DNA from: Candidatus Omnitrophota bacterium | Lineage (GTDB): Bacteria; Omnitrophota; Gorgyraeia; Pluralincolimonadales; Pluralincolimonadaceae | DNA length: 64,000 nucleotides | Direction: 5' to 3' | NCBI GenBank assembly: GCA_003141835.1 | Contig: PLNR01000005.1 | Coordinates: 126,289-190,288 of the forward strand | Shown: positions 2,961 to 42,163 of the stretch, in pieces | Layout of the letters: the number at the start of each line of letters is the position of its first letter | Position numbering within the stretch: the first letter of the stretch is position 1 | Notes under the pieces: model-generated | What the model saw: the letters and a program-made list of their open reading frames with translations, nothing else | The model's database searches: none | Told to the model about the DNA's origin: nothing | Position numbers and translations under genes: made by a program

Positions 2961-3511
2961 AAAAGCGGATCGCGTTACTTTTGGCTTTATCATTCGCTGC
3001 CTCGCTCGCCGGGTGCGGTTACGCCACTCATTCGACCAATTACAAGAAAGCCACGAAGATCTTCATAAAGCCCTTCGAGAACAAAGTTGACCTGAACATC
3101 GAAAGGGAATATTCGGACCGCAATCCTTACAGGCTGTACCGCGCCGGGATGGAAACGAATATAACTGACGCGGTAATAGACAGGTTCCAGGTCGACGGTT
3201 ACCTGAAGGTCGTCTCAAGGCAGGACGAGGCTGACCTGGTCTTAAGCGGCGCGCTTACCAATTATGACAAACAGCCGTTAAGGTTCGACCAGCGCAGCGA
3301 GAACGTCGATGAGTACAGGGCCAATATAATAGTCGATATGTCCCTCGAGGACGTGGTCCGGGGAAAAACGGTCTGGACCGAAAAAGGGTTTGTCGGTTTC
3401 TTTGAATACAACCAGAGCGGGCCGAACTCAGTACCGGAAGATGCCGCTATAACCAATGCGACCGCGGACCTGGCAAAAAGGATCGTCGAAAGGACCATAG
3501 AGGATTGGTAG
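2957..3511 (+). CDS. lptE: LPS-assembly lipoprotein LptE-like
   Basis: Lipobox LAGC after signal peptide, about 180 aa, immediately upstream of holA as in the conserved lptE-holA arrangement. Confidence 0.45.
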   Translation: MKKRIALLLALSFAASLAGCGYATHSTNYKKATKIFIKPFENKVDLNIEREYSDRNPYRLYRAGMETNITDAVIDRFQVDGYLKVVSRQDEADLVLSGALTNYDKQPLRFDQRSENVDEYRANIIVDMSLEDVVRGKTVWTEKGFVGFFEYNQSGPNSVPEDAAITNATADLAKRIVERTIEDW

Positions 3512-4392
3512 GTATCTTCCTCTTTTTAGGAACAGAGAACGCCCTTAAAGAAGAGACCCTCCGCGAACTGAAAGATAAGACCCTCTCCGGAGGCAATCCC
3601 GACCTCAATTACAACATATTCTACCCGGACCAGTTTGACCCCCACACTTTCCAGGATGCCGTCAACACAAACCCGTTCCTCAGCCCTGCCCGTTTTGTCG
3701 TGATAAGGGATATAGATAAACTGCCGCAGGAGGCCAGGGACCCGGTGATGAATTACGCCAGGAACCCGTCCGGCACCACCGTACTGGTCATGACTGCCGG
3801 CCTGTCGCCGAGGGAGGCGGACGGCGACCCTTTCCTTTCCGGATTATCAAAATTAGCCGAGGTCAGGGATTTCGAGAATTTAAGCGGGGAAAGTCTCAGG
3901 CGTTATATCCTGGGGAAGGCCGCCTTTTACAAGAAAGAAATGGGCCGCGACGCCGTTGAATTGATCATCTCGAAGATCGGCAACGACCTGCAGAAATTAC
4001 GCATGGCGGTGGAGAAACTCGCGAATTATACCGGGGACCGCAAGGGGATAGAGAAGAAGGATGTCGAGGTGCTCGTAGGAAGGTCGCTCGACGAGACCGT
4101 ATTTGACATGACCGGGGCGATGATGGACGGGCAGGCCTCGCGCTCCCTTTCGATATTATCCGGGCTTTTGAGGGAATCAGTGCGGCCGGAGAACGTAATA
4201 GGGGCGATGGCCGCCGCGGTGAAACGCGCCGCCAGATCGAAAGGCTCCCCTGACCGGGCCAAAAGATGGCTTAAGAAGGCCCTTTCTTACCTGGCCGAGG
4301 CGGACCGCGACTGCAAAAACAGGGACCTCGATAAAAGGGTTATCCTGGAATCTCTCGTGGTGAGGTTATCTGAGCTTGGCGAGCTTGCTTAA
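3505..4392 (+). CDS. holA: DNA polymerase III delta subunit
   Basis: Size, position after lptE and delta-subunit-like N-terminal region; TTG start is uncertain. Confidence 0.65.
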   Translation: MVGIFLFLGTENALKEETLRELKDKTLSGGNPDLNYNIFYPDQFDPHTFQDAVNTNPFLSPARFVVIRDIDKLPQEARDPVMNYARNPSGTTVLVMTAGLSPREADGDPFLSGLSKLAEVRDFENLSGESLRRYILGKAAFYKKEMGRDAVELIISKIGNDLQKLRMAVEKLANYTGDRKGIEKKDVEVLVGRSLDETVFDMTGAMMDGQASRSLSILSGLLRESVRPENVIGAMAAAVKRAARSKGSPDRAKRWLKKALSYLAEADRDCKNRDLDKRVILESLVVRLSELGELA

Positions 4393-4629
4393 GATGCGGG
4401 CTCTCTTGCGCGATACCGTATTCCTGTGCAGCATGCCCTTGGAGCGCGCCTTGTCAAGTTTGGAGACGAGGGAAGCGCCGAATTTCCTGGCTTCGTCGGC
4501 CTTTTTCGCGGTCAGAGCCATCACGAACTTCTTGGCTAAGGACTTGATCTCGGTAGCGACCTTCTGGTTCCTCGCGCGTCTCTTCTTGTCCTGGCGTATA
4601 GCTTTAGATGCGGATCTTATATTAGGCAA
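4366..4629 (-). CDS. rpsT: 30S ribosomal protein S20
   Basis: PNIRSASKAIRQDKKRRARN aligns with the S20 N-terminus (ANIKSAKKRAIQSEK). The TTG start at 4629 is preceded by AGGAG 7 nt upstream; 87 aa. The 3' end overlaps the holA 3' end convergently. Confidence 0.85.
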   Translation of the reverse strand: MPNIRSASKAIRQDKKRRARNQKVATEIKSLAKKFVMALTAKKADEARKFGASLVSKLDKARSKGMLHRNTVSRKRARILSKLAKLR

Positions 4630-32730: not shown

Positions 32731-33348
32731 ATGTCGCGCGGAAGGTTCATCACTATCGAGGGCCCGGAAGGGTCGGGAAAATCCACCCATTCACGCCTGC
32801 TTTGCGAATTCCTCAGGGGAAGCGGCCATAAGGTGCTCCATACGCGCGAGCCCGGAGGCACAAGATTAGGCGAGGCGATAAGACAGGTCCTGCTCGACAA
32901 GAAAAATAAGAATATGTCCGATGGATGCGAACTTTTCCTTTTCCTCGCGGCGCGCGCCCAAGTAGTCTCCGAAGTGATAATGCCGGCTTTGAAGAAGGGA
33001 TATATAGTTGTCTGCGACAGGTTCCATGACGCGACTGTCGCGTACCAGGGTTACGGCGCAGGCCTCGACCTGAAATTGATAGATTCGGCGGGTAAGCTCG
33101 CGACGGGCGGGCTTAAACCCGACCTGACTATATTGCTCGACGTTGAGACGTCGGCCGGGCTGAAACGCGGCGGCATAAAGGACAGGATGGAAGTCAAGCC
33201 TGTCCGTTTCCACAAGAAGGTCAGGGACGGTTATTTTAAGATAGCGAAGAAAGAACCGCGCCGGATAAAGGTCATCAATACCGGCGGCGTGCCTATCGCC
33301 GCGGTACAGGATAAAATAAGAAGAGCCGTATCGCATGTCGTTCAATAA
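32731..33348 (+). CDS. tmk: thymidylate kinase
   Basis: P-loop FITIEGPEGSGKST and a DRF motif. Confidence 0.85.
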   Translation: MSRGRFITIEGPEGSGKSTHSRLLCEFLRGSGHKVLHTREPGGTRLGEAIRQVLLDKKNKNMSDGCELFLFLAARAQVVSEVIMPALKKGYIVVCDRFHDATVAYQGYGAGLDLKLIDSAGKLATGGLKPDLTILLDVETSAGLKRGGIKDRMEVKPVRFHKKVRDGYFKIAKKEPRRIKVINTGGVPIAAVQDKIRRAVSHVVQ

Positions 33349-34300
33349 AGTCATCGGGCAGGAACTCGCCGCAGGTCTCTTGAAAAAAGCGATAGAGGAG
33401 AAACGCCTGGCGCACGCGTATCTCTTTATCGGCCCGGAAGGTGTGGGCAAGTCGCTGCTGGCGAAGGTCTTCGCCAAGGCGCTCAATTGCGAAAAAGGCG
33501 GCGCGGAACCCTGCGGGGAATGCGTATCCTGCAGGAAGATAGAGGCAAATATCCATCCCGACGCGGTCGTCCTCTCCCCGGAAGGGAAATCGTCGCAGAT
33601 AGGCATAGACGCGATCCGCAAGATAGAAGGGGCGATGTCGCTGAAGCCTTACGAGGGGCGGACCAAGGTCTTCACTATCGACGGCGCGGATAAGATGACA
33701 GAGGAAGCCGCGAACTCGCTGCTGAAGACCCTCGAGGAGCCGCCGAAAGACACGGTACTGGTGCTACTGGCCTCTAACATGTTCAAACTGCAGCCGACGA
33801 TAGTATCGCGGTGCCAGAAGATCCTCTTCCATCCGCTGGGCGAGCGCGCGATAATGAAAGAGCTCATCGAAAGATTCGGGCTCGACGAGAAGAAGGCCGC
33901 CTGTATATCGAGATTTTCCGAAGGCCGTCTCGGCAGGGCGATAGAGGTCCTCGAAGGCGAGGCGCTTGCTAAGAGGAATAAAATAGTTGACGAATTTTTG
34001 ACGCCGAAGCAGTTCGGCTATGAGGATACGTGGTTATACGGCGAGCCGCGCGATAAGATAAACGAGACGCTCAACGCCTTGGCCGTCTATTTCAGGGACC
34101 TTTTGGTCTTCAGCCTCTCAAAGGACCAGGGCCTGCTCGTAAACCTCGACAGGGCTGCCGATATTGCCCGTGATGCGGCAAAATACCCGGCCGAAAGGCT
34201 CGAGAGGATAATCGAGATAATTGCCGACACGCAGGAGCAGATAAAGAGGAACGCCAACATAAAGATCGCGCTCTCCTGCATGCGGCTTAACATAACTTAG
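33335..34300 (+). CDS. holB: DNA polymerase III delta-prime subunit
   Basis: AAA+-like P-loop GPEGVGKS and zinc-module cysteines (CEKGGAEPCGECVSC). Confidence 0.8.
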   Translation: MSFNKVIGQELAAGLLKKAIEEKRLAHAYLFIGPEGVGKSLLAKVFAKALNCEKGGAEPCGECVSCRKIEANIHPDAVVLSPEGKSSQIGIDAIRKIEGAMSLKPYEGRTKVFTIDGADKMTEEAANSLLKTLEEPPKDTVLVLLASNMFKLQPTIVSRCQKILFHPLGERAIMKELIERFGLDEKKAACISRFSEGRLGRAIEVLEGEALAKRNKIVDEFLTPKQFGYEDTWLYGEPRDKINETLNALAVYFRDLLVFSLSKDQGLLVNLDRAADIARDAAKYPAERLERIIEIIADTQEQIKRNANIKIALSCMRLNIT

Positions 34301-34311
34301 GGGAAATAAAA

Positions 34312-35133
34312 ATGTTCGAAGTTGTGCAGATAAGGTTAAGGGAAGGCGGCAAGACGTCGTTTTTTGAGCCCGGCAACACGAAACCGAAGACGGGCGAAAC
34401 GGTCATAGTCGAGGCGGACAGGGGCGTCGACTACGGCGATGTCATATCCGATATAGAATCCGTTTCCGAGATAGCGGGCGACGAGCCGATCCGCAAGGTC
34501 TTAAGGATAGCCACTGCCGGCGACCTCGACCAGATAAAGAAGAACCGCGAGAAGACGAAAGAGGCTTTCACCGCCTGCCAGAAGAAGATAATCGAGCACG
34601 GGCTGAAGATGAAACTCATCGACGCCGAATACACCTTCGACAGGTCGAAGCTTTTGTTTTATTTCACGGCAGAAGGGCGCGTCGATTTCAGGGAACTCGT
34701 AAAAGACCTCGCGCGGATATTCAAGGCGCGCATAGAGCTCAAGCAAATAGGCGTCCGAGACGAAGCGCGGCTGTTGGGCGGGTTCGGCCCGTGCGGCAAG
34801 TGCCTCTGCTGCGCGACCTTCCTCAAGGATTTCGAGCCGGTCACGATAAAGATGGCCAAGGAGCAGAACCTCCCGCTCAACCCGGCGAAGATCTCAGGCG
34901 TATGCGGCAGGCTGATGTGCTGCCTAGGCTACGAGCATAAATTATACGTCGAACTGTTGAAGGGCCTGCCGAAGGAAGGCGAAAAGGTCAACCTTGAAGG
35001 ATGCGCCGGCAAGGTCGTCTCGGTGAACGCGCTCAAGCGCTCGATAACCGTCGATTGCGGCGAGGGAAAGTTCGTCGAGCTCGGCTGCAAATGCCCCAAG
35101 GGCTGCCAAATGCACCTCAACCAGAGAAAATGA
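34312..35133 (+). CDS. ricT: PSP1 C-terminal domain protein (RicT/YaaT-like)
   Basis: N-terminal PSP1-like region and C-terminal cysteine clusters; position after holB as in Bacillus. Confidence 0.7.
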   Translation: MFEVVQIRLREGGKTSFFEPGNTKPKTGETVIVEADRGVDYGDVISDIESVSEIAGDEPIRKVLRIATAGDLDQIKKNREKTKEAFTACQKKIIEHGLKMKLIDAEYTFDRSKLLFYFTAEGRVDFRELVKDLARIFKARIELKQIGVRDEARLLGGFGPCGKCLCCATFLKDFEPVTIKMAKEQNLPLNPAKISGVCGRLMCCLGYEHKLYVELLKGLPKEGEKVNLEGCAGKVVSVNALKRSITVDCGEGKFVELGCKCPKGCQMHLNQRK

Positions 35134-36692
35134 AAAAGTTTTACGTCACCACAGCCATATATTACGTAAACGCGAAACCGCATATCGGCCACTGTTCTGA
35201 AAGCGCCTCCGCAGACGCGTTGGCGCGCTACCACCGGCTCAAAGGAGAAGACGTATTTTTCCTGACCGGCACGGATGAGCACGGGCAGAAAGTCGCCAAG
35301 GCCGCGCTTGAGGCTGGCAAGACTCCGAAGGAGTTCGTCGATTCGGTCGTGAAGCCTTCCCTCGAATTGTGGAAACTCCTCTCCATATCCTATGATGATT
35401 TCATAAGGACTACCGACGAGCGCCACGCCGAGGTCGTCAAATTCCTCCTCGATGACCTGCATAAAAAAGGCGAACTTTACGAATCGGAATACAAGGGATG
35501 GTATTGCAGCTCATGCGAGGCGTTCTACCCGAAGAACCAGCTTGAGGGCAGCACCTGCCCGGAATGCAAGCGCCAGCTCGAGGAGATCTCGGAGACGAAC
35601 TGGTTCTTCAAACTGTCGAAATACCAGGATTGGCTTGTAAAATATATAAATGACCATCCCGATTTCATAAAACCCGCCTCGAGGAGGAACGAGATATTGA
35701 GCTTCCTCTCCCAGCCGCTCCAGGACCTCTGCATCTCGCGCCCGAGATCGCGGCTCGAATGGGGCATCCCCATGCCTTTTTCGAAGGACCATGTCACCTA
35801 CGTCTGGTTCGACGCCCTCGTTAATTACATATCCGGCATAGGCTACCTTAATGATAAGGAAAAATTCAACAAGTTCTGGCCCGCGGACGTCCATATAGTC
35901 GGCAAGGACATAATAAGGTTCCACACGGTCTACTGGCCGATAATGCTGCATGCGGCAGGCATCGAGCTGCCGAAGACGGTCTTCGCCCACGGTTTCTGGC
36001 TTATCGGCAAGGACGCCGAGAAGATGTCCAAATCGAAGGGAAACGTGGTCGACCCGTTCGAGCTCATAAACAAATACGGCCCTGACCCGCTAAGATATTT
36101 CCTTTTGAGGGAAGTGACGTACGGCCTCGACGGGGTATATTCCGAGGCCGCGCTCGTAAGCAGGCTCAATACCGACCTTGCCAATGACATCGGCAACCTC
36201 CTTAACAGGACGCTGACGATGATAGAGAAATATTATGGAGGCAGGGTCCCTGCTCCGGCAGGGACGTCGCTGCGCTCCGAAGATCCCGGCGATGATGAAT
36301 TGAAGGCGCTCGCGAAGGGCCTTCCGGGCAGGATAGACGCGGCCATGGCAGAGCTGGATTTCTCCGGTGCTTTGGCTTCGATATGGGAGCTGATCAACAA
36401 GGCGAATAAATATATAGAGGTGCAGGCGCCGTGGACGCTCGACAAGCAGGGCAAGAAAGACCGTCTCAGCGACGTGATATATAATCTGGCCGAGATACTG
36501 AGGATAGTCACTATAGCGGTCTCGCCGTTCATCCCCGCTTCAGCGGAGAAGATGTGGGAGCAAGCCGGCATTACAGAACCGCTTTCCAAAATGCGTTTTT
36601 CCGATATAGAAAAGTGGGGCCTCGTCAAGCCGGGGACGCAGATAAAGAAAGGCGCCCCGCTCTTCCCACGCATCGACACAAAGGCGAAATGA
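35130..36692 (+). CDS. metG: methionyl-tRNA synthetase
   Basis: HIGH (HIGHC), KMSKS, and zinc knuckles CSSCEAF/CPECK. The ATG at 35130 overlaps the ricT stop. Confidence 0.9.
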   Translation: MKKFYVTTAIYYVNAKPHIGHCSESASADALARYHRLKGEDVFFLTGTDEHGQKVAKAALEAGKTPKEFVDSVVKPSLELWKLLSISYDDFIRTTDERHAEVVKFLLDDLHKKGELYESEYKGWYCSSCEAFYPKNQLEGSTCPECKRQLEEISETNWFFKLSKYQDWLVKYINDHPDFIKPASRRNEILSFLSQPLQDLCISRPRSRLEWGIPMPFSKDHVTYVWFDALVNYISGIGYLNDKEKFNKFWPADVHIVGKDIIRFHTVYWPIMLHAAGIELPKTVFAHGFWLIGKDAEKMSKSKGNVVDPFELINKYGPDPLRYFLLREVTYGLDGVYSEAALVSRLNTDLANDIGNLLNRTLTMIEKYYGGRVPAPAGTSLRSEDPGDDELKALAKGLPGRIDAAMAELDFSGALASIWELINKANKYIEVQAPWTLDKQGKKDRLSDVIYNLAEILRIVTIAVSPFIPASAEKMWEQAGITEPLSKMRFSDIEKWGLVKPGTQIKKGAPLFPRIDTKAK

Positions 36693-38068
36693 TGAGGCTC
36701 GTCGATACCCATTGCCACCTCGATTTCCCTGAGTTCGATCCCGACAGGGAAGAAGTAATAAGCAGGGCAAAGGCAGTCGGCATAGAATACATCATAAACG
36801 TCGCGAGCAGCCTCGAGGGCTCAAAAAAGTCGGTCGCGCTCGCGAATAAATATGACTGCGTATACGCCTCTGTCGGCATCCACCCTCACGACGCGAAAGA
36901 ACTCAACGAATCCTCGTTTTCCGGGATAAGGGCCCTCGCGAAAGATAAAAAGGTGGTAGCCATAGGCGAAGTCGGCCTCGATTATTACAGGAACCTCTCG
37001 CCGGCCGGCCTGCAGCAGGCCGCATTCAAGAAATTCCTCCACCTCGCCCAAGATACGGGCCTTCCGCTCATAATCCACTGCCGAGAGGCGCGCGAAGACC
37101 TCCTGAAGATAATAAAAAAAGAGATCTCCGCCCCGGTAAAGGGTGTCATCCACTGTTTTCCCGCCGATGAGGAACTCCTCAATAACGTCCTCGACCTCGG
37201 GATGTACGTCTCGTTCACCTGCAACCTCACTTTCAAGAATGCCGCCAAAGCGCGCGAAATGGTAAAAGCCCTTGTCCCGATGGACAGGATACTGGTCGAG
37301 ACCGACGCGCCGTACCTGGCGCCGGAAGGGATGCGCGGCAAGAGGAACGAGCCGTCCTATATGGTAAAAGTTGTAGAACAGATAGCGGAACTGAAAGGGA
37401 TCACCCCGGAAGACGTGGCCAGGGCGACGACAGCCAACTGCGCGCGGCTCTTCGGAGTCGGCGGCGCCCCGGAATCGGCGATAACGTATAAAATAAGGGA
37501 CTCGCTGTACATAAACCTCACCAACAGGTGCACCAGCGACTGCGAATTCTGCGTCACCAAGACGACTGATTTCGTGATGGGGCATAACCTGCGCCTTAAA
37601 GGCGAACCGTCGGCAAAAGAGATAATAGAGGAGGTCGGCGACCCGAAGAGATACGATGAGATAGTGTTCTGCGGATACGGCGAACCCACTTTACGGCTCG
37701 ATTGCTTGGTCGAGGTCGCGAAGGCCCTGAAAAAGAAGGGCGCCAAGGTCCGACTTACGACGAACGGCCACGGCAACCTAATAAATAAAAGGCGCATTGT
37801 CGACGACCTCGCCGGGCTCATTGACCGGGTAAGCGTGAGCCTTAACGCCCCGGATAAAGAGGCCTATAATAAGGTCTGCAGGCCGGCGTTCGGCCCTGAG
37901 ACTTTCAGCGAAGTGAAGAAGTTCATCTCCGAGTGCAGGGAGAGACTGCCTGAGGTCGAAGTCACCTGCGTCGATTACGAAGGCGTGGACATGAAAGAAT
38001 GCGAGAGGGTCGCGACGGAAGAGTTAAAGGTCAAATTCAGGCCGAGGAGGCTCAACGTTGTTGGATAA
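36689..38068 (+). CDS. TatD-family metal-dependent hydrolase fused to a C-terminal radical SAM domain
   Basis: TatD N-terminus (MMRLVDTHCHLDFPEF, later HCF) continues without a stop into a CTSDCEFC (Cx3Cx2C) radical SAM domain. Confidence 0.75.
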   Translation: MMRLVDTHCHLDFPEFDPDREEVISRAKAVGIEYIINVASSLEGSKKSVALANKYDCVYASVGIHPHDAKELNESSFSGIRALAKDKKVVAIGEVGLDYYRNLSPAGLQQAAFKKFLHLAQDTGLPLIIHCREAREDLLKIIKKEISAPVKGVIHCFPADEELLNNVLDLGMYVSFTCNLTFKNAAKAREMVKALVPMDRILVETDAPYLAPEGMRGKRNEPSYMVKVVEQIAELKGITPEDVARATTANCARLFGVGGAPESAITYKIRDSLYINLTNRCTSDCEFCVTKTTDFVMGHNLRLKGEPSAKEIIEEVGDPKRYDEIVFCGYGEPTLRLDCLVEVAKALKKKGAKVRLTTNGHGNLINKRRIVDDLAGLIDRVSVSLNAPDKEAYNKVCRPAFGPETFSEVKKFISECRERLPEVEVTCVDYEGVDMKECERVATEELKVKFRPRRLNVVG

Positions 38069-39119
38069 GATCAGGAAATTTGCATTCGAGAACAGGGTCT
38101 ATCTCTTCTTGCTCTCCTTCATTATAGCGACCGAGATATTCCTGGTCTTGTCGCCCTCGCCGGAGAGGAAGGAGAAGCTCGCCGAGAAAAAATCGCACAA
38201 GATATTGACGGCCCAGGAGGTCCTCGCGCAGGAGGAGAGTATAAAAGAGCTGCTCGCGCGCGACAGCATGCTGGGTTTTGCGGTCACGGCCAGCACATTC
38301 TTAAGCGCCGTTGCGCTTTTGGCCGGCCTTATCATCGGGATAAGATGCATCGCCCGCAAACTTAACGGACGCGACATCATGGCCGCTTACGGCTCCCCGC
38401 CGGAAGTGCGATGGCAATTCATAGATATCTTAAGGGTGATAGTCACGTTCTATTTCTTCGCCTACCTGCTCCAGTGGATAGAGGCCGATATACTCGGCCT
38501 GATGAATATAAAGAACCCCAACGAGGTGCTCTTTGACGTGCTCAACGCGACGCTGATGGATGTCATCGGCCTCGTAATAGTCCTGTTTTTCGCGGTAAAT
38601 AAATTCAAGAGCGGCCTGGCCGGGCTGGGGCTTATCTTTAAGAACACGGCAAGGAACATGAGGCTCGCCATCGGCGGCTACTTTACGTTAATCCCCGTCC
38701 TGGCTATCATAATGATCCTGGTCTTCATCGGCATCAGGGTGTTCAGCTATGAACCTCCGGAGACGAAGGCGCTTGAGATGCTCTACGAGGCGAAGGGGAC
38801 GAAGCTCCTCTTTATCCTTACGGCGCTCGTCACGATCATCGGGCCGATAGCAGAGGAATTATTCTTCAGGGGTTTTGCGTACCCGGTATTCAGGAAGAAG
38901 ATAGGGGTGAGGAATGCGATACTGGTCGTCTCATTCATCTTCGCGATGCTGCATATGAATATCGTCTCGTTCTTCCCGATACTCGCGCTCGGCATCCTGC
39001 TGGCGTATCTTTACGAGAAGACCGGATCTATCATACCGTCGATAGCGGTGCATATAATCCATAATTCGGCCGTGATATTCTTTGTGTTCCTTTATAAACT
39101 GATCGCGATCCCCAAATAA
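38058..39119 (+). CDS. CPBP family intramembrane glutamic endopeptidase (CAAX protease/Abi)
   Basis: Polytopic protein with EELFFRGF, FAMLHMN and HIIHNS motifs. Confidence 0.7.
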   Translation: MLDKIRKFAFENRVYLFLLSFIIATEIFLVLSPSPERKEKLAEKKSHKILTAQEVLAQEESIKELLARDSMLGFAVTASTFLSAVALLAGLIIGIRCIARKLNGRDIMAAYGSPPEVRWQFIDILRVIVTFYFFAYLLQWIEADILGLMNIKNPNEVLFDVLNATLMDVIGLVIVLFFAVNKFKSGLAGLGLIFKNTARNMRLAIGGYFTLIPVLAIIMILVFIGIRVFSYEPPETKALEMLYEAKGTKLLFILTALVTIIGPIAEELFFRGFAYPVFRKKIGVRNAILVVSFIFAMLHMNIVSFFPILALGILLAYLYEKTGSIIPSIAVHIIHNSAVIFFVFLYKLIAIPK

Positions 39120-39122
39120 ACG

Positions 39123-40229
39123 ATGGGCCCAAAAGTCTCGATAGTAAAAGCGGATTCGTACGATCCCGGCAAGGTCTATGCCGCCGTCAAGAAAGCGGTG
39201 GACCTGCTCGGCGGCATCTCTTTGTTCGCCGGGCACGGCGAGACAATACTCCTGAAGCCCAACGTCCTTTCCGCGAAGCCGCCGGAATCCGGCGTCGACA
39301 CTCACCCTGAGATGATACGCGCGGTCGCGAGGCTCGTAAGGGAAGCCGGCGCAAAAGTGATCGTCGGGGATTCGCCGGGAGGGGTATACTTCAAGGACTC
39401 GGGCTCGACATATGAAACAGCAGGGATAAAGAAGGTCTGCGACGAGGAGAAGATAGAGCTCGTCGATTTCGACAGGGCAAGGAATGTCCGCGGGATGCCG
39501 ATAACCGAATGGGCTTTCGCCGCCGACGGGATAATATCCCTGCCTAAGATGAAGACGCACGGCCTGACGACGATAACCGGGGCGGTAAAGAATTCTTACG
39601 GGCTGGCGATCGGCCTTTACAAGGCGCAGTGCCATTTTAAGGCGCCGCGGCCTGAAGCGTTCAGTAAATACGTGGTCGATGTTTTTGAGGCGGCCAAACC
39701 GCGGCTCGCGATAATGGACGGCATAACGGCTATGGAAGGCGACGGGCCAGCCGCCGGAGACCTAAGGAATACGGGGCTTGTGATCGCAGGAAGCGACTGC
39801 GTGGCGATCGATTCGGTGTTTGCGAAACTTATAGGCATCGAGCCGCTTAAAGTCGGGATAACGGCCGAGGCATACAGGAGGGGGCTCGGAGAGGCGGATA
39901 TCTCGAAAATTGAGGTCGTCGGCGAAACCATCGATGCCGTAAAATTGAAGGATTTCAAGCTCCCCAAGACGTCTGTCGTAATGAAGTTGCCCGAACCGCT
40001 CCTAAAGCTTATAATAGGGGGGATAAAGTTCCTGCCGCGGATAGACGATAATCTGTGTAAGGGCTGCCTCATCTGCGAGAAGAGCTGCCCGGCCGCGGCG
40101 ATAGAGATAGGCAAAGGGCATTCGCGCATCGATTATTCGAAGTGCGTAAGGTGTTTTTGCTGCATGGAGCTTTGCCCGCACAAGGCGATACATATCAAAC
40201 GCAGCCTGCTTGCCAGGCTTATGGGATAA
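39123..40229 (+). CDS. DUF362 domain protein with C-terminal 2x[4Fe-4S] ferredoxin domain
   Basis: DUF362-like N-terminus (KPNVLSAKPPESGVDTHPE) and CKGCLICEKSCP / CVRCFCCMELCP cluster motifs. Confidence 0.65.
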   Translation: MGPKVSIVKADSYDPGKVYAAVKKAVDLLGGISLFAGHGETILLKPNVLSAKPPESGVDTHPEMIRAVARLVREAGAKVIVGDSPGGVYFKDSGSTYETAGIKKVCDEEKIELVDFDRARNVRGMPITEWAFAADGIISLPKMKTHGLTTITGAVKNSYGLAIGLYKAQCHFKAPRPEAFSKYVVDVFEAAKPRLAIMDGITAMEGDGPAAGDLRNTGLVIAGSDCVAIDSVFAKLIGIEPLKVGITAEAYRRGLGEADISKIEVVGETIDAVKLKDFKLPKTSVVMKLPEPLLKLIIGGIKFLPRIDDNLCKGCLICEKSCPAAAIEIGKGHSRIDYSKCVRCFCCMELCPHKAIHIKRSLLARLMG

Positions 40230-40233
40230 AACA

Positions 40234-41271
40234 ATGGCTATCCAGACGATAAGATGGGACGCCCAAAAGTCGGGCGGGGCAATAAAGATAATAGACCAGA
40301 CCCTGCTCCCGAACAAGCTTGTCTACTTGAAGTTCCGCGACGTGAAGGATTTCTGGCATGCGATAAAGAAACTGCAGGTGCGCGGGGCGCCGGCATTGGG
40401 CGTGGCCGCCGCATACGGGGCTTATTTGGGGGTACAAAAATCGCACGCCAAAAACTACAATGAATTTATCCGGGAACTGGACCGCGTCATAAAATTCATC
40501 GGCTCGGCCAGGCCGACCGCGGTGAATCTTTTTTGGGGCCTCGACAGGATCCGCGCCGCCGCCGTAAAAAATAAGAGAAAAACTATTCCGGAGATAAAAA
40601 AGGCCCTGCTCGCCGAGGCGCATAAAGTATACGAGGAGGACAGGGCGATATGCAGGAAGATGGCCGGATACGGAGCGCGGCTGATCAAAAACGGCGATGT
40701 CATATTGACGCACTGCAACGCCGGCGCGCTGGCGACTGCCGATTACGGCACCGCGCTTGGCGTAATTTATATGGCGAAGGAACAGGGCAAGCGCGTAAAG
40801 GTATATGCCGATGAGACGCGGCCGCTTTTGCAGGGCGCGCGCCTTACGGCGTGGGAACTGATGCGGGAAGGGATAGATGTGACGCTCATCTGCGATAACA
40901 TGGCCGCCCATGTCATGAGCCAGGGCAAGGTGACGAAGGTCATTGTCGGCGCCGACAGGATCACCAAAAACGGCGACGCGGCGAACAAGATCGGCACTTA
41001 CGGCGTGGCGGTCCTCGCGAAATACCACAAGATACCTTTTTATGTAGTCGCGCCGGTCTCGACGATAGATTTCAACCTTACATACGGAAAGGACATCCCG
41101 ATCGAAGAGAGGCACGGGGATGAGATCACGACTATCCGCGGGAATCTTCTCGCGCCGAAAGGGGTAAAGACATATTGTCCGGCATTCGACGTCACGCCGG
41201 CAGCGCTCATTACCGCGATTGTAACGGAAAAAGGGGTTTTTAAGCCGGATGAAATTAAAAAGATTAGGTGA
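40234..41271 (+). CDS. mtnA: S-methyl-5-thioribose-1-phosphate isomerase (eIF-2B alpha/beta/delta family)
   Basis: GAPALGVAAAYG and GADRITKNGDAANKIGTY motifs. Confidence 0.8.
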   Translation: MAIQTIRWDAQKSGGAIKIIDQTLLPNKLVYLKFRDVKDFWHAIKKLQVRGAPALGVAAAYGAYLGVQKSHAKNYNEFIRELDRVIKFIGSARPTAVNLFWGLDRIRAAAVKNKRKTIPEIKKALLAEAHKVYEEDRAICRKMAGYGARLIKNGDVILTHCNAGALATADYGTALGVIYMAKEQGKRVKVYADETRPLLQGARLTAWELMREGIDVTLICDNMAAHVMSQGKVTKVIVGADRITKNGDAANKIGTYGVAVLAKYHKIPFYVVAPVSTIDFNLTYGKDIPIEERHGDEITTIRGNLLAPKGVKTYCPAFDVTPAALITAIVTEKGVFKPDEIKKIR

Positions 41272-42163
41272 GACAGGGCTTATAGAGCGGCTCGCGAAGA
41301 ATTTTAAGGCGGGCAAGGATATCATCCGCGGCATCGGCGACGATTGCGCCGTGATACGCATATCAAATAAAAAATACCTGCTCATTACTATCGACATGCT
41401 CCTTGAGGACGTGGATTTTAAATTAAAGGACGCGGCGGCTTTCCAGATAGGATGGAAGTCGCTCGCTTGCGGCTTAAGCGATATCGCCTCGATGGGCGGT
41501 ACGGCGAAATACGCGGTCGTCTCTTTAGGCCTTCCGAAGAAGCTTAGCGTCGAATTCATAGACGAGATCTACCGAGGGATAAAAGCGCTTGCCAAAAGGT
41601 TCGATGTCGAGATAGTCGGCGGCGACACAAACTCTTCGCGCAAGTTGGTAATAGACGTCGCAGTCCTCGGGTTCACGGAACCGGATAAGATAGCGTTCAG
41701 GAGCGGCGCGAGGCCCGGCGATATAATATGCGTGACAGGCGCGCTCGGCGGCTCATATAAGAGCAAGAGGCACCTTGTTTTTACGCCGCGGCTTAAAGAA
41801 GCGCAGTACCTGGTAAATAATTTCAAAATAACATCGATGATAGATATCTCGGACGGGCTTTCGACCGACTTAAGCCATATCGCGAAGGCGAGCGGGGTAG
41901 GCGCCTGCATATATGAGGAACTGGTACCGGTCTCAAAGGGCGCCAGGGGCGTAAAAGCGGCCTTGAACGAAGGCGAGGATTTCGAGTTGTTGTTTACGAT
42001 GCCGCTGGCCGAGGCGCGCAGGCTTGCCCGGAAGAACATGGAATTGAACGGCGTGAGGATATCGCAGATCGGCGAGATACTCGATAAAAAGATCGGCGTG
42101 AAGATAATAGCCCCGGACGGGACGACGAAAGAACTCAAGCCAAAAGGATTTTCCCATTTTTAG
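41249..42163 (+). CDS. thiL: thiamine-monophosphate kinase
   Basis: AIR-synthase-related fold, GDDCAVI motif. Confidence 0.8.
   Translation: MKLKRLGETGLIERLAKNFKAGKDIIRGIGDDCAVIRISNKKYLLITIDMLLEDVDFKLKDAAAFQIGWKSLACGLSDIASMGGTAKYAVVSLGLPKKLSVEFIDEIYRGIKALAKRFDVEIVGGDTNSSRKLVIDVAVLGFTEPDKIAFRSGARPGDIICVTGALGGSYKSKRHLVFTPRLKEAQYLVNNFKITSMIDISDGLSTDLSHIAKASGVGACIYEELVPVSKGARGVKAALNEGEDFELLFTMPLAEARRLARKNMELNGVRISQIGEILDKKIGVKIIAPDGTTKELKPKGFSHF

Follow-up and report, generated by a model that had tools for sequence, protein, structure and literature searches.

A TatD-family hydrolase joined in frame to a radical SAM domain in a Candidatus Omnitrophota bacterium

We describe here a gene from a Candidatus Omnitrophota bacterium that encodes a TatD-type hydrolase and a radical S-adenosylmethionine (SAM) domain within a single polypeptide. 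It lies in a 64,000-nucleotide stretch of DNA (assembly GCA_003141835.1, contig PLNR01000005.1, positions 126,289 to 190,288), which was analysed as a whole and is referred to as the window. The gene occupies one uninterrupted open reading frame of 459 amino acids on the + strand (36689-38068), evident both in the list of open reading frames and in the sequence, and comparison with its homologues indicates that the product is a genuine, evolutionarily conserved bifunctional protein. The architecture is already known, because the radical SAM family concerned is catalogued (TIGR04038/IPR023821) and public databases already hold fused proteins that are up to 88-91% identical to the window protein. 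A role in nucleic-acid repair or modification, as suggested in an original prediction made from this DNA, is plausible.

The fusion gene and its two domains

The reading frame starts with an ATG at 36689 that overlaps the TGA stop codon of metG (36690-36692) as ATGA, and it ends with a stop codon at 38066-38068. Reading through from 36689 to 38068 reveals neither a stop codon nor a change of frame between the TatD and radical SAM domains, and the claim that the two form one in-frame polypeptide is thus borne out. The peptides cited in support of that claim are all found, with HCHLDFPEF at residues 8-16, HCF at residues 155-157, and NLTNRCTSDCEFCVTKT at residues 276-292. The features of the gene are as follows.

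36689..38068, + strand: tatD-radical SAM fusion gene, complete, 459 amino acids plus stop codon (open reading frame; two-domain matches in Pfam and NCBIfam)
36701..37456, + strand: TatD/YcfH-type (Group II, HxH) metal-dependent hydrolase/nuclease domain, residues 5-256 (PF01026, TIGR00010, Foldseek)
36710..36718, + strand: H8-C9-H10 (HxH) metal-binding motif of the TatD active site (alignment)
37457..37480, + strand: inter-domain linker, residues 257-264, GVGGAPES (F255-Y267 spacing, model confidence)
37481..38053, + strand: TIGR04038 radical SAM domain with a minimal core fold of ~190 amino acids, residues 265-455 (TIGR04038, PF04055)
37529..37552, + strand: C281-x3-C285-x2-C288, predicted [4Fe-4S]-binding motif (read from the sequence)
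37670..37687, + strand: C328-G-Y-G-E-P, variant 'GGE' SAM-binding motif following a cysteine specific to the family (alignment)

Profile searches assign both domains as originally proposed. The Pfam model PF01026 (TatD_DNase) matches residues 5-256 over profile positions 1-253 of 253 with an E value of 8.8e-89, and PF04055 (Radical_SAM) matches residues 275-441 with an E value of 2.9e-20. Among the NCBIfam models, TIGR00010 (YchF/TatD family) scores 286.5 bits against a cutoff of 206, placing the protein in that family, and TIGR04038 (tatD_link_rSAM) scores 255 bits against a cutoff of 129.7, spanning residues 265-455 and profile positions 2-191 of 192. The radical SAM region therefore passes its family threshold, as a profile scan proposed with the original prediction was meant to establish, and the TIGR04038 match substantiates the suggested link to a TatD-associated radical SAM family. 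The association with TatD, by fusion or adjacency, takes the form here of fusion in one open reading frame. The NCBI model type of TIGR04038 is 'subfamily_domain', which marks it as a domain found inside larger proteins.

Conservation was assessed in an alignment of 145 fused proteins, which share 36-75% identity with the window protein, together with 136 radical SAM domains. In the TatD half, the HxH histidines H8 and H10 and the remaining metal ligands E94, H130, H155 and D206 are 98-99% conserved across the fused proteins, and were invariant in our first alignment; the HxH motif is what defines the Group II TatD enzymes (PMC10085689). Foldseek matches the modelled TatD half to structures 1j6o, 6l25, 2gzx and 1yix with identities of 39-43% and target TM-scores of 0.89-0.96, and the scores of 0.93-0.96 to 1j6o, 6l25 and 2gzx correspond to a predicted TIM-barrel fold of full length. 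The TatD half is thus predicted to be a TIM-barrel, divalent-metal-dependent phosphoesterase, whose relatives cut single-stranded DNA or RNA in the 3' to 5' direction. Its closest Escherichia coli paralogue is YcfH, yet that name is not warranted as an equivalog label because the score for the E. coli YcfH model NF008075 is well below its cutoff (224.4 bits, cutoff 438).

In the radical SAM half, the three cluster cysteines C281, C285 and C288 are 100% conserved in both the 136 domains and the 145 fused proteins, as are G329, G331 and E332, and C328 is 96-97% conserved. Residues Y267, Y274, N276, T278, R336, R355, T358, G360, D379, S384, Y393, F412 and R453, along with C328, are conserved at 95% or more. 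The combination of CxxxCxxC and a GGE-type motif in a predicted partial TIM-barrel core whose fold matches those of pyruvate formate-lyase activating enzyme (PFL-AE), viperin and NifB places the domain in the radical SAM superfamily. An auxiliary iron-sulfur cluster was considered and rejected: beyond the CxxxCxxC triad only C328 is conserved, and because C397 (77%), C438 (62%), and C416 and C427 (both <50%) are poorly kept, no such cluster is predicted.

Structural comparison of the radical SAM half with Foldseek recovers only the generic core, in TYW1, PFL-AE, BlsE, NifB, viperin, QueE and MoaA, with query TM-scores of 0.6-0.72 and E values of 1e-7 to 1e-5. A family profile compared with solved structures matches MoaA best (2e-7), followed by RlmN (5e-6) and PFL-AE (2e-5). 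Because these matches cover the generic core only, the domain is best described as a minimal core of ~190 amino acids without an appended substrate-binding module. The sister family TIGR04100 (rSAM_pair_X) reaches 191.5 bits against a cutoff of 262, and the NCBIfam matches that follow are to a tungsten-cofactor maturase, MoaA and prokaryotic viperin, with E values of 1e-10 to 1e-17. None of the MoaA models (42-48 bits, cutoffs 231-325), viperin_w_prok (40 bits, cutoff 180) or QatD (107 bits, cutoff 230) reaches its threshold.

The two domains are joined by a short linker. From F255, where the last TatD helix ends, to Y267, the first conserved residue of the radical SAM domain, there are 11-12 residues in 57 of the 68 species with fused genes described below. 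An AlphaFold2 model of the full protein, built from a 50-sequence alignment, has a mean predicted local distance difference test score (pLDDT) of 92.4 and a predicted template-modelling score (pTM) of 0.84; the linker averages a pLDDT of ~85-88, without any low-confidence stretch, and the radical SAM domain modelled alone reaches 94.4. The short linker of fixed length and the confident model fit a fixed arrangement of the two domains. The catalytic residue sets of both halves are 97-100% conserved in the 145 fused proteins in spite of overall identities of only 36-75%, which argues that both halves are under purifying selection.

That two separate genes were merged by an error of assembly or sequencing, such as a missed stop or frameshift between the domains, is ruled out, because 68 species genomes, independent of one another, and all 120 of the best homologues share the same in-frame junction.

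Distribution of fused, split and standalone forms

A search of 5.8 billion proteins was made with the window protein, and the best 120 matches were considered. All 120 carry both PF01026 and PF04055, are 454-489 amino acids long, and range in identity from 91% down to 54%; nearly all of those that are named derive from Candidatus Omnitrophota metagenome-assembled genomes (MAGs). Several, including P0003, P0004, P0014, P0016 and P0018, bear database product names such as 'TatD family hydrolase' or 'YchF/TatD family DNA exonuclease', and since these names cover the N-terminal half only, the radical SAM half is hidden from view.

The radical SAM domain alone was then compared with one genome per GTDB species, which yielded more than 587 relatives, and the best 80 loci were examined. 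TatD and radical SAM domains share one open frame at 68 of these 80 loci, in about ten phyla: Omnitrophota, Nitrospinota, Nitrospirota, Planctomycetota (Brocadiales), Ignavibacteriota/Bacteroidota, Zixibacteria, Acidobacteriota, Aquificota, Coatesbacteria and some Proteobacteria. Ten loci, several of them labelled Gammaproteobacteria, have a radical SAM gene without TatD within 4 kb, and one is cut off by the end of its contig. The two genes are split but adjacent at just one locus (L042), in an Endomicrobiales MAG, where tatD (3234-4001) and the radical SAM gene (3998-4606) follow holB-PSP1-metG and overlap by ATGA in two different frames; altering a single base would turn this form into the fused one or back again.

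HMMER, run exhaustively against 1.84 billion cluster representatives (50% identity), gave 1835 matches at E<=1e-3 and 252 at E<=1e-30. Among the best 150 representatives, 97 are fused (78 full and 19 truncated at the N-terminus) and 52 contain the radical SAM domain only; the one that was left unclassified at first proved to be another N-terminally truncated fusion. Homologues that are longer, at 490-664 amino acids, contain TatD and Radical_SAM only, and no third domain was found in them. The original prediction had set the single polypeptide against neighbouring genes elsewhere and so implied that it was unusual; this does not hold, as the fused form is predominant among the sampled relatives (68/80 loci; 97/150 clusters). 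The comparison of fused and split occurrences across phyla that it proposed likewise shows fusion to be common and broadly spread, but recovers the neighbouring-gene form only once.

A neighbour-joining tree of the 136 radical SAM domains intersperses fused with unfused forms and requires at least 23 switches between the two states, so that fusion and fission have occurred repeatedly; the tree is crude, and some of the metagenomic proteins scored as unfused may still adjoin a tatD gene. Together with the overlapping split form, the interleaved states are a Rosetta-stone-type signal of a functional link between the two domains. One homologue (L077, 3755-5441) has an N-terminal extension of ~90 amino acids and is followed directly by another radical SAM gene of a different kind (PF04055 plus Fer4_12), an arrangement that may represent the paired form of the sister family TIGR04100.

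Genomic neighbourhood

The fusion gene belongs to a tightly packed, co-directional array of nine genes on the + strand (32731-42163), whose other members are listed here.

32731-33348, + strand: tmk
33335-34300, + strand: holB
34312-35133, + strand: PSP1/RicT-like gene
35127-36692, + strand: metG, methionyl-tRNA synthetase (PF09334, E 2e-113)
38058-39119, + strand: CPBP/Rce1-like membrane protease gene
39123-40229, + strand: gene for a DUF362 plus ferredoxin-domain protein (PF04015, E 3e-52, plus Fer4 families)
40210-41271, + strand: mtnA-like gene for an IF-2B family isomerase
41249-42163, + strand: thiL-like gene for an AIR-synthase family protein

Stop and start codons overlap at 33335/33348, 35127/35133, 36689-36692 (the ATGA), 38058/38068, 40210/40229 and 41249/41271, and metG is translationally coupled to the fusion gene. 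The mechanically derived metG reading frame starts at 35001, inside the PSP1 gene; the true start is likely the ATG at 35127 (MKKFYVTTAIYYVN...), giving a 7-nucleotide overlap with the PSP1 stop. Scans for promoters and terminators returned nothing above background that would separate the genes of the array, and scans for regulatory RNAs and tRNAs were similarly unproductive. Across the whole window (1-64000), ARAGORN identified no tRNA or tmRNA genes, and no Rfam family was matched at its gathering threshold.

The order of the array is kept in close Omnitrophota relatives (L001-L004, L011, L015 and L021). When neighbouring genes were clustered over the 80 loci, only metG and PSP1 recurred widely, with metG directly upstream of the fusion gene in 25-29 loci from several phyla and PSP1 in 18-23; a ksgA-like gene, identified from its N-terminal sequence only, follows the fusion gene in four. 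The unfused ycfH of E. coli occupies this same position (tmk-holB-ycfH), as does Bacillus subtilis yabD (metS-yabD...ksgA). Because the position of the fusion gene matches that of these unfused genes, the TatD half is the housekeeping Group II (HxH) TatD rather than a specialised paralogue.

TatD is the only recurrent partner of the radical SAM family among the 80 loci. The neighbours of standalone radical SAM genes include gatB, queF, FAD oxidoreductases, a ferric reductase-like gene, an HDOD gene, a C92 amidase gene and another radical SAM gene, and no common theme was found among the neighbours of the radical-SAM-only loci. In one case (L039, 2559-4648) the standalone homologue is coupled to gatB by a 4-nucleotide overlap, after gatC and gatA, and in another (L048, 445-1493) it divergently adjoins a QueF-like gene. 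The DUF362 protein, encoded two genes downstream of the fusion gene in the window, has a C-terminal 2x[4Fe-4S] ferredoxin domain, and its position is kept in five of the 80 loci, all Omnitrophota. We speculate that it could serve as the reductant for the radical SAM cluster.

Possible function and relationship to known enzymes

Our preferred reading, which we offer tentatively, is that the two active sites share a nucleic-acid 3' end as their substrate in the processing of DNA damage. The radical SAM domain would bind one [4Fe-4S] cluster through C281, C285 and C288 and cleave SAM reductively to give a 5'-deoxyadenosyl radical, which would abstract a hydrogen atom from a substrate common to both domains, presumably a nucleic acid. 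The radical step would deal with a nucleotide or lesion beyond the reach of hydrolysis, by converting or unblocking it, and TatD would then excise or trim the converted end, although the two steps could also occur in the reverse order. The net result would be an oxygen-independent route for the processing of damaged ends.

The data establish the identities of the two domains, the intact catalytic motifs in both halves, the fusion across phyla, the short rigid linker and the housekeeping position of the gene; cluster binding, SAM cleavage, a common substrate and its nucleic-acid nature are inferred. Metal-dependent 3'-5' exonuclease activity on single strands, and apurinic/apyrimidinic (AP) endonuclease activity on duplex DNA, are established for TatD, YcfH and YjjV of E. 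coli and for human TATDN1 and TATDN3 (PMC10085689, PMC4176340), and an E. coli triple tatD/ycfH/yjjV mutant is sensitive to H2O2 (PMC10085689). The 3'-exonuclease and AP-endonuclease activities of TatD, YcfH and YjjV and the protection they afford against H2O2 favour our reading (PMC10085689), as does the fact that MoaA, RlmN, viperin and TYW1, the nearest characterised relatives of the radical SAM domain in sequence, act on nucleotides or RNA.

Several observations weigh against this reading. The structural matches of the radical SAM half are to the generic core only (TM-scores 0.6-0.72, E 1e-7 to 1e-5) and indicate no substrate. The ten loci without a nearby TatD show that the two domains need not be physically coupled. 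What YcfH/YabD-type TatD enzymes act on in the cell is itself disputed, the candidates being DNA, RNA and D-aminoacyl-tRNA (PMC10711561). In the literature we found no biochemical or genetic study of any family member. The original prediction gave the substrate as unknown, and this stands: the literature search returned neither papers that mention TIGR04038 nor a functional joint treatment in those that name both TatD and radical SAM proteins, and IPR023821 is named in passing as the 'TatD-associated rSAM family' in one preprint (bioRxiv 10.1101/2024.11.19.624229).

A bolder version, which we regard as unlikely, is that the radical SAM domain represents a new class of radical SAM enzymes for nucleic-acid repair or editing, passing its product to the TatD exonuclease. 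Spore photoproduct lyase uses radical SAM chemistry to reverse a DNA lesion, and this class would be the second of its kind. At the 3' end or close to it, the radical would undo or open a lesion that resists hydrolysis, or it would act on the 3' end of a tRNA; example lesions would be an oxygen-independent radical lesion such as a 5',8-cyclopurine, or a blocked 3' terminus. If true, this would also bring to light what the housekeeping YcfH/YabD TatD acts on, which has long been disputed.

Could the common substrate instead be tRNA? The protein would then be a translation quality-control enzyme encoded beside metG, in which TatD hydrolyses D-aminoacyl- or mis-acylated tRNA, or trims its 3' end, and the radical SAM domain modifies or repairs the same tRNA. 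The presence of metG upstream, here and at 25-29 of the 80 loci, often with translation genes such as the ksgA-like one, is in keeping with this, as are the standalone homologues beside gatB (L039) and queF (L048), although the latter contexts are single cases. The best structural and profile matches include TYW1 and RlmN, but these cover the generic core and do not surpass the matches to PFL-AE, NifB or viperin. D-aminoacyl-tRNAs are reportedly hydrolysed by DTD3 of Synechocystis and by YcfH of E. coli, as stated in the discussion of PMC10711561 with reference to its citation 92. On balance we think a tRNA enzyme rather unlikely. The metG-tatD synteny (metS-yabD in B. subtilis) is presumably also found with unfused TatD in organisms that do not have this radical SAM protein, and it is therefore uninformative about the radical SAM domain, which counts against the tRNA explanation. 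We think it less likely still that the two domains have independent functions and are merely co-expressed, having been fused with ease by loss of one base from an ATGA overlap between coupled genes. Exactly such an overlap is seen in the split pair at L042, fused and unfused forms interconvert frequently on the tree, and at ten loci no TatD lies near the radical SAM gene; but TatD is the sole recurrent partner of the radical SAM family, the linker length is tightly conserved, the inter-domain arrangement is confidently predicted (pTM 0.84), and the fusion persists over about ten phyla down to 36% identity.

Chemistry on a free nucleotide, of the type carried out by MoaA on GTP or viperin on CTP, with TatD as a phosphoesterase acting on a small-molecule product, strikes us as quite improbable. 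The tungsten-cofactor maturase, MoaA and prokaryotic viperin models are the next NCBIfam matches, MoaA is the best profile match among solved structures in the PDB, and the conserved R336, R355 and R453 could bind phosphates. The MoaA and viperin scores are nonetheless far under their cutoffs (42-48 bits against 231-325 and 40 against 180), MoaA's GTP-binding C-terminal extension and second cluster are absent, there being only three conserved cluster cysteines, and neither PMC10085689 nor PMC4176340 documents a small-molecule substrate for the TatD enzymes characterised there. Less probable still, and by our estimate very hard to credit, is an anti-phage defence module composed of a QatD-like TatD nuclease and a viperin-like radical SAM domain. 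PADLOC gives weak matches (QatD 98 bits, pVip 44 bits), as does NCBIfam (QatD 107 bits, viperin_w_prok 40 bits), but the latter scores are well below the respective cutoffs of 230 and 180, and the gene sits across phyla in a conserved housekeeping operon (tmk-holB-PSP1-metG) rather than in a variable defence island.

As a sequence feature the window protein changes little and adds nothing new to its family. The pairing itself is widespread and strictly conserved, with at least 252 clusters (50% identity, E<=1e-30) and about ten phyla, the Aquificota among them. It couples a housekeeping nuclease, whose role in the cell is uncertain, with a radical enzyme. The family is an attractive target for further work. 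Establishing what the radical SAM domain does could settle the in-cell substrate of the YcfH/YabD-type TatD enzymes, whether DNA ends, RNA or aminoacyl-tRNA, and a second radical-SAM route of nucleic-acid repair might emerge from the same work.

The window protein is an ordinary member of TIGR04038/IPR023821 with the commonest, fused architecture and has no feature that distinguishes it from the others. E. coli YcfH, Thermotoga maritima TM0667 and the Staphylococcus aureus TatD SAV0491 superpose on its modelled TatD half and have the same HxH/E/H/H/D ligands, and YcfH and YabD have in common with the fusion gene a position after holB and metG; but YcfH, B. subtilis YabD, TM0667 and SAV0491 are single-domain proteins of ~255-265 amino acids, whereas the window protein has an additional radical SAM domain of 195 amino acids. 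With the cores of PFL-AE, QueE, viperin, the MoaA N-domain, TYW1 and NifB this domain shares a partial (beta/alpha)6 fold, the cluster loop and a GGE-type motif, and it also contains the MoaA-like 'TTNG' and 'VSLN' SAM-binding strands. Its identity to the solved minimal-core radical SAM enzymes is only 15-25%, however, and it differs from them in the absence of an auxiliary cluster, a C-terminal substrate domain and a glycyl-radical partner, and in its family-specific residues Y267, Y274, N276, C328, R336, R355, D379, Y393, F412 and R453. Spore photoproduct lyase is not among the NCBIfam, Foldseek or profile matches of the window protein, and its resemblance to the repair chemistry proposed here is one of functional analogy only.

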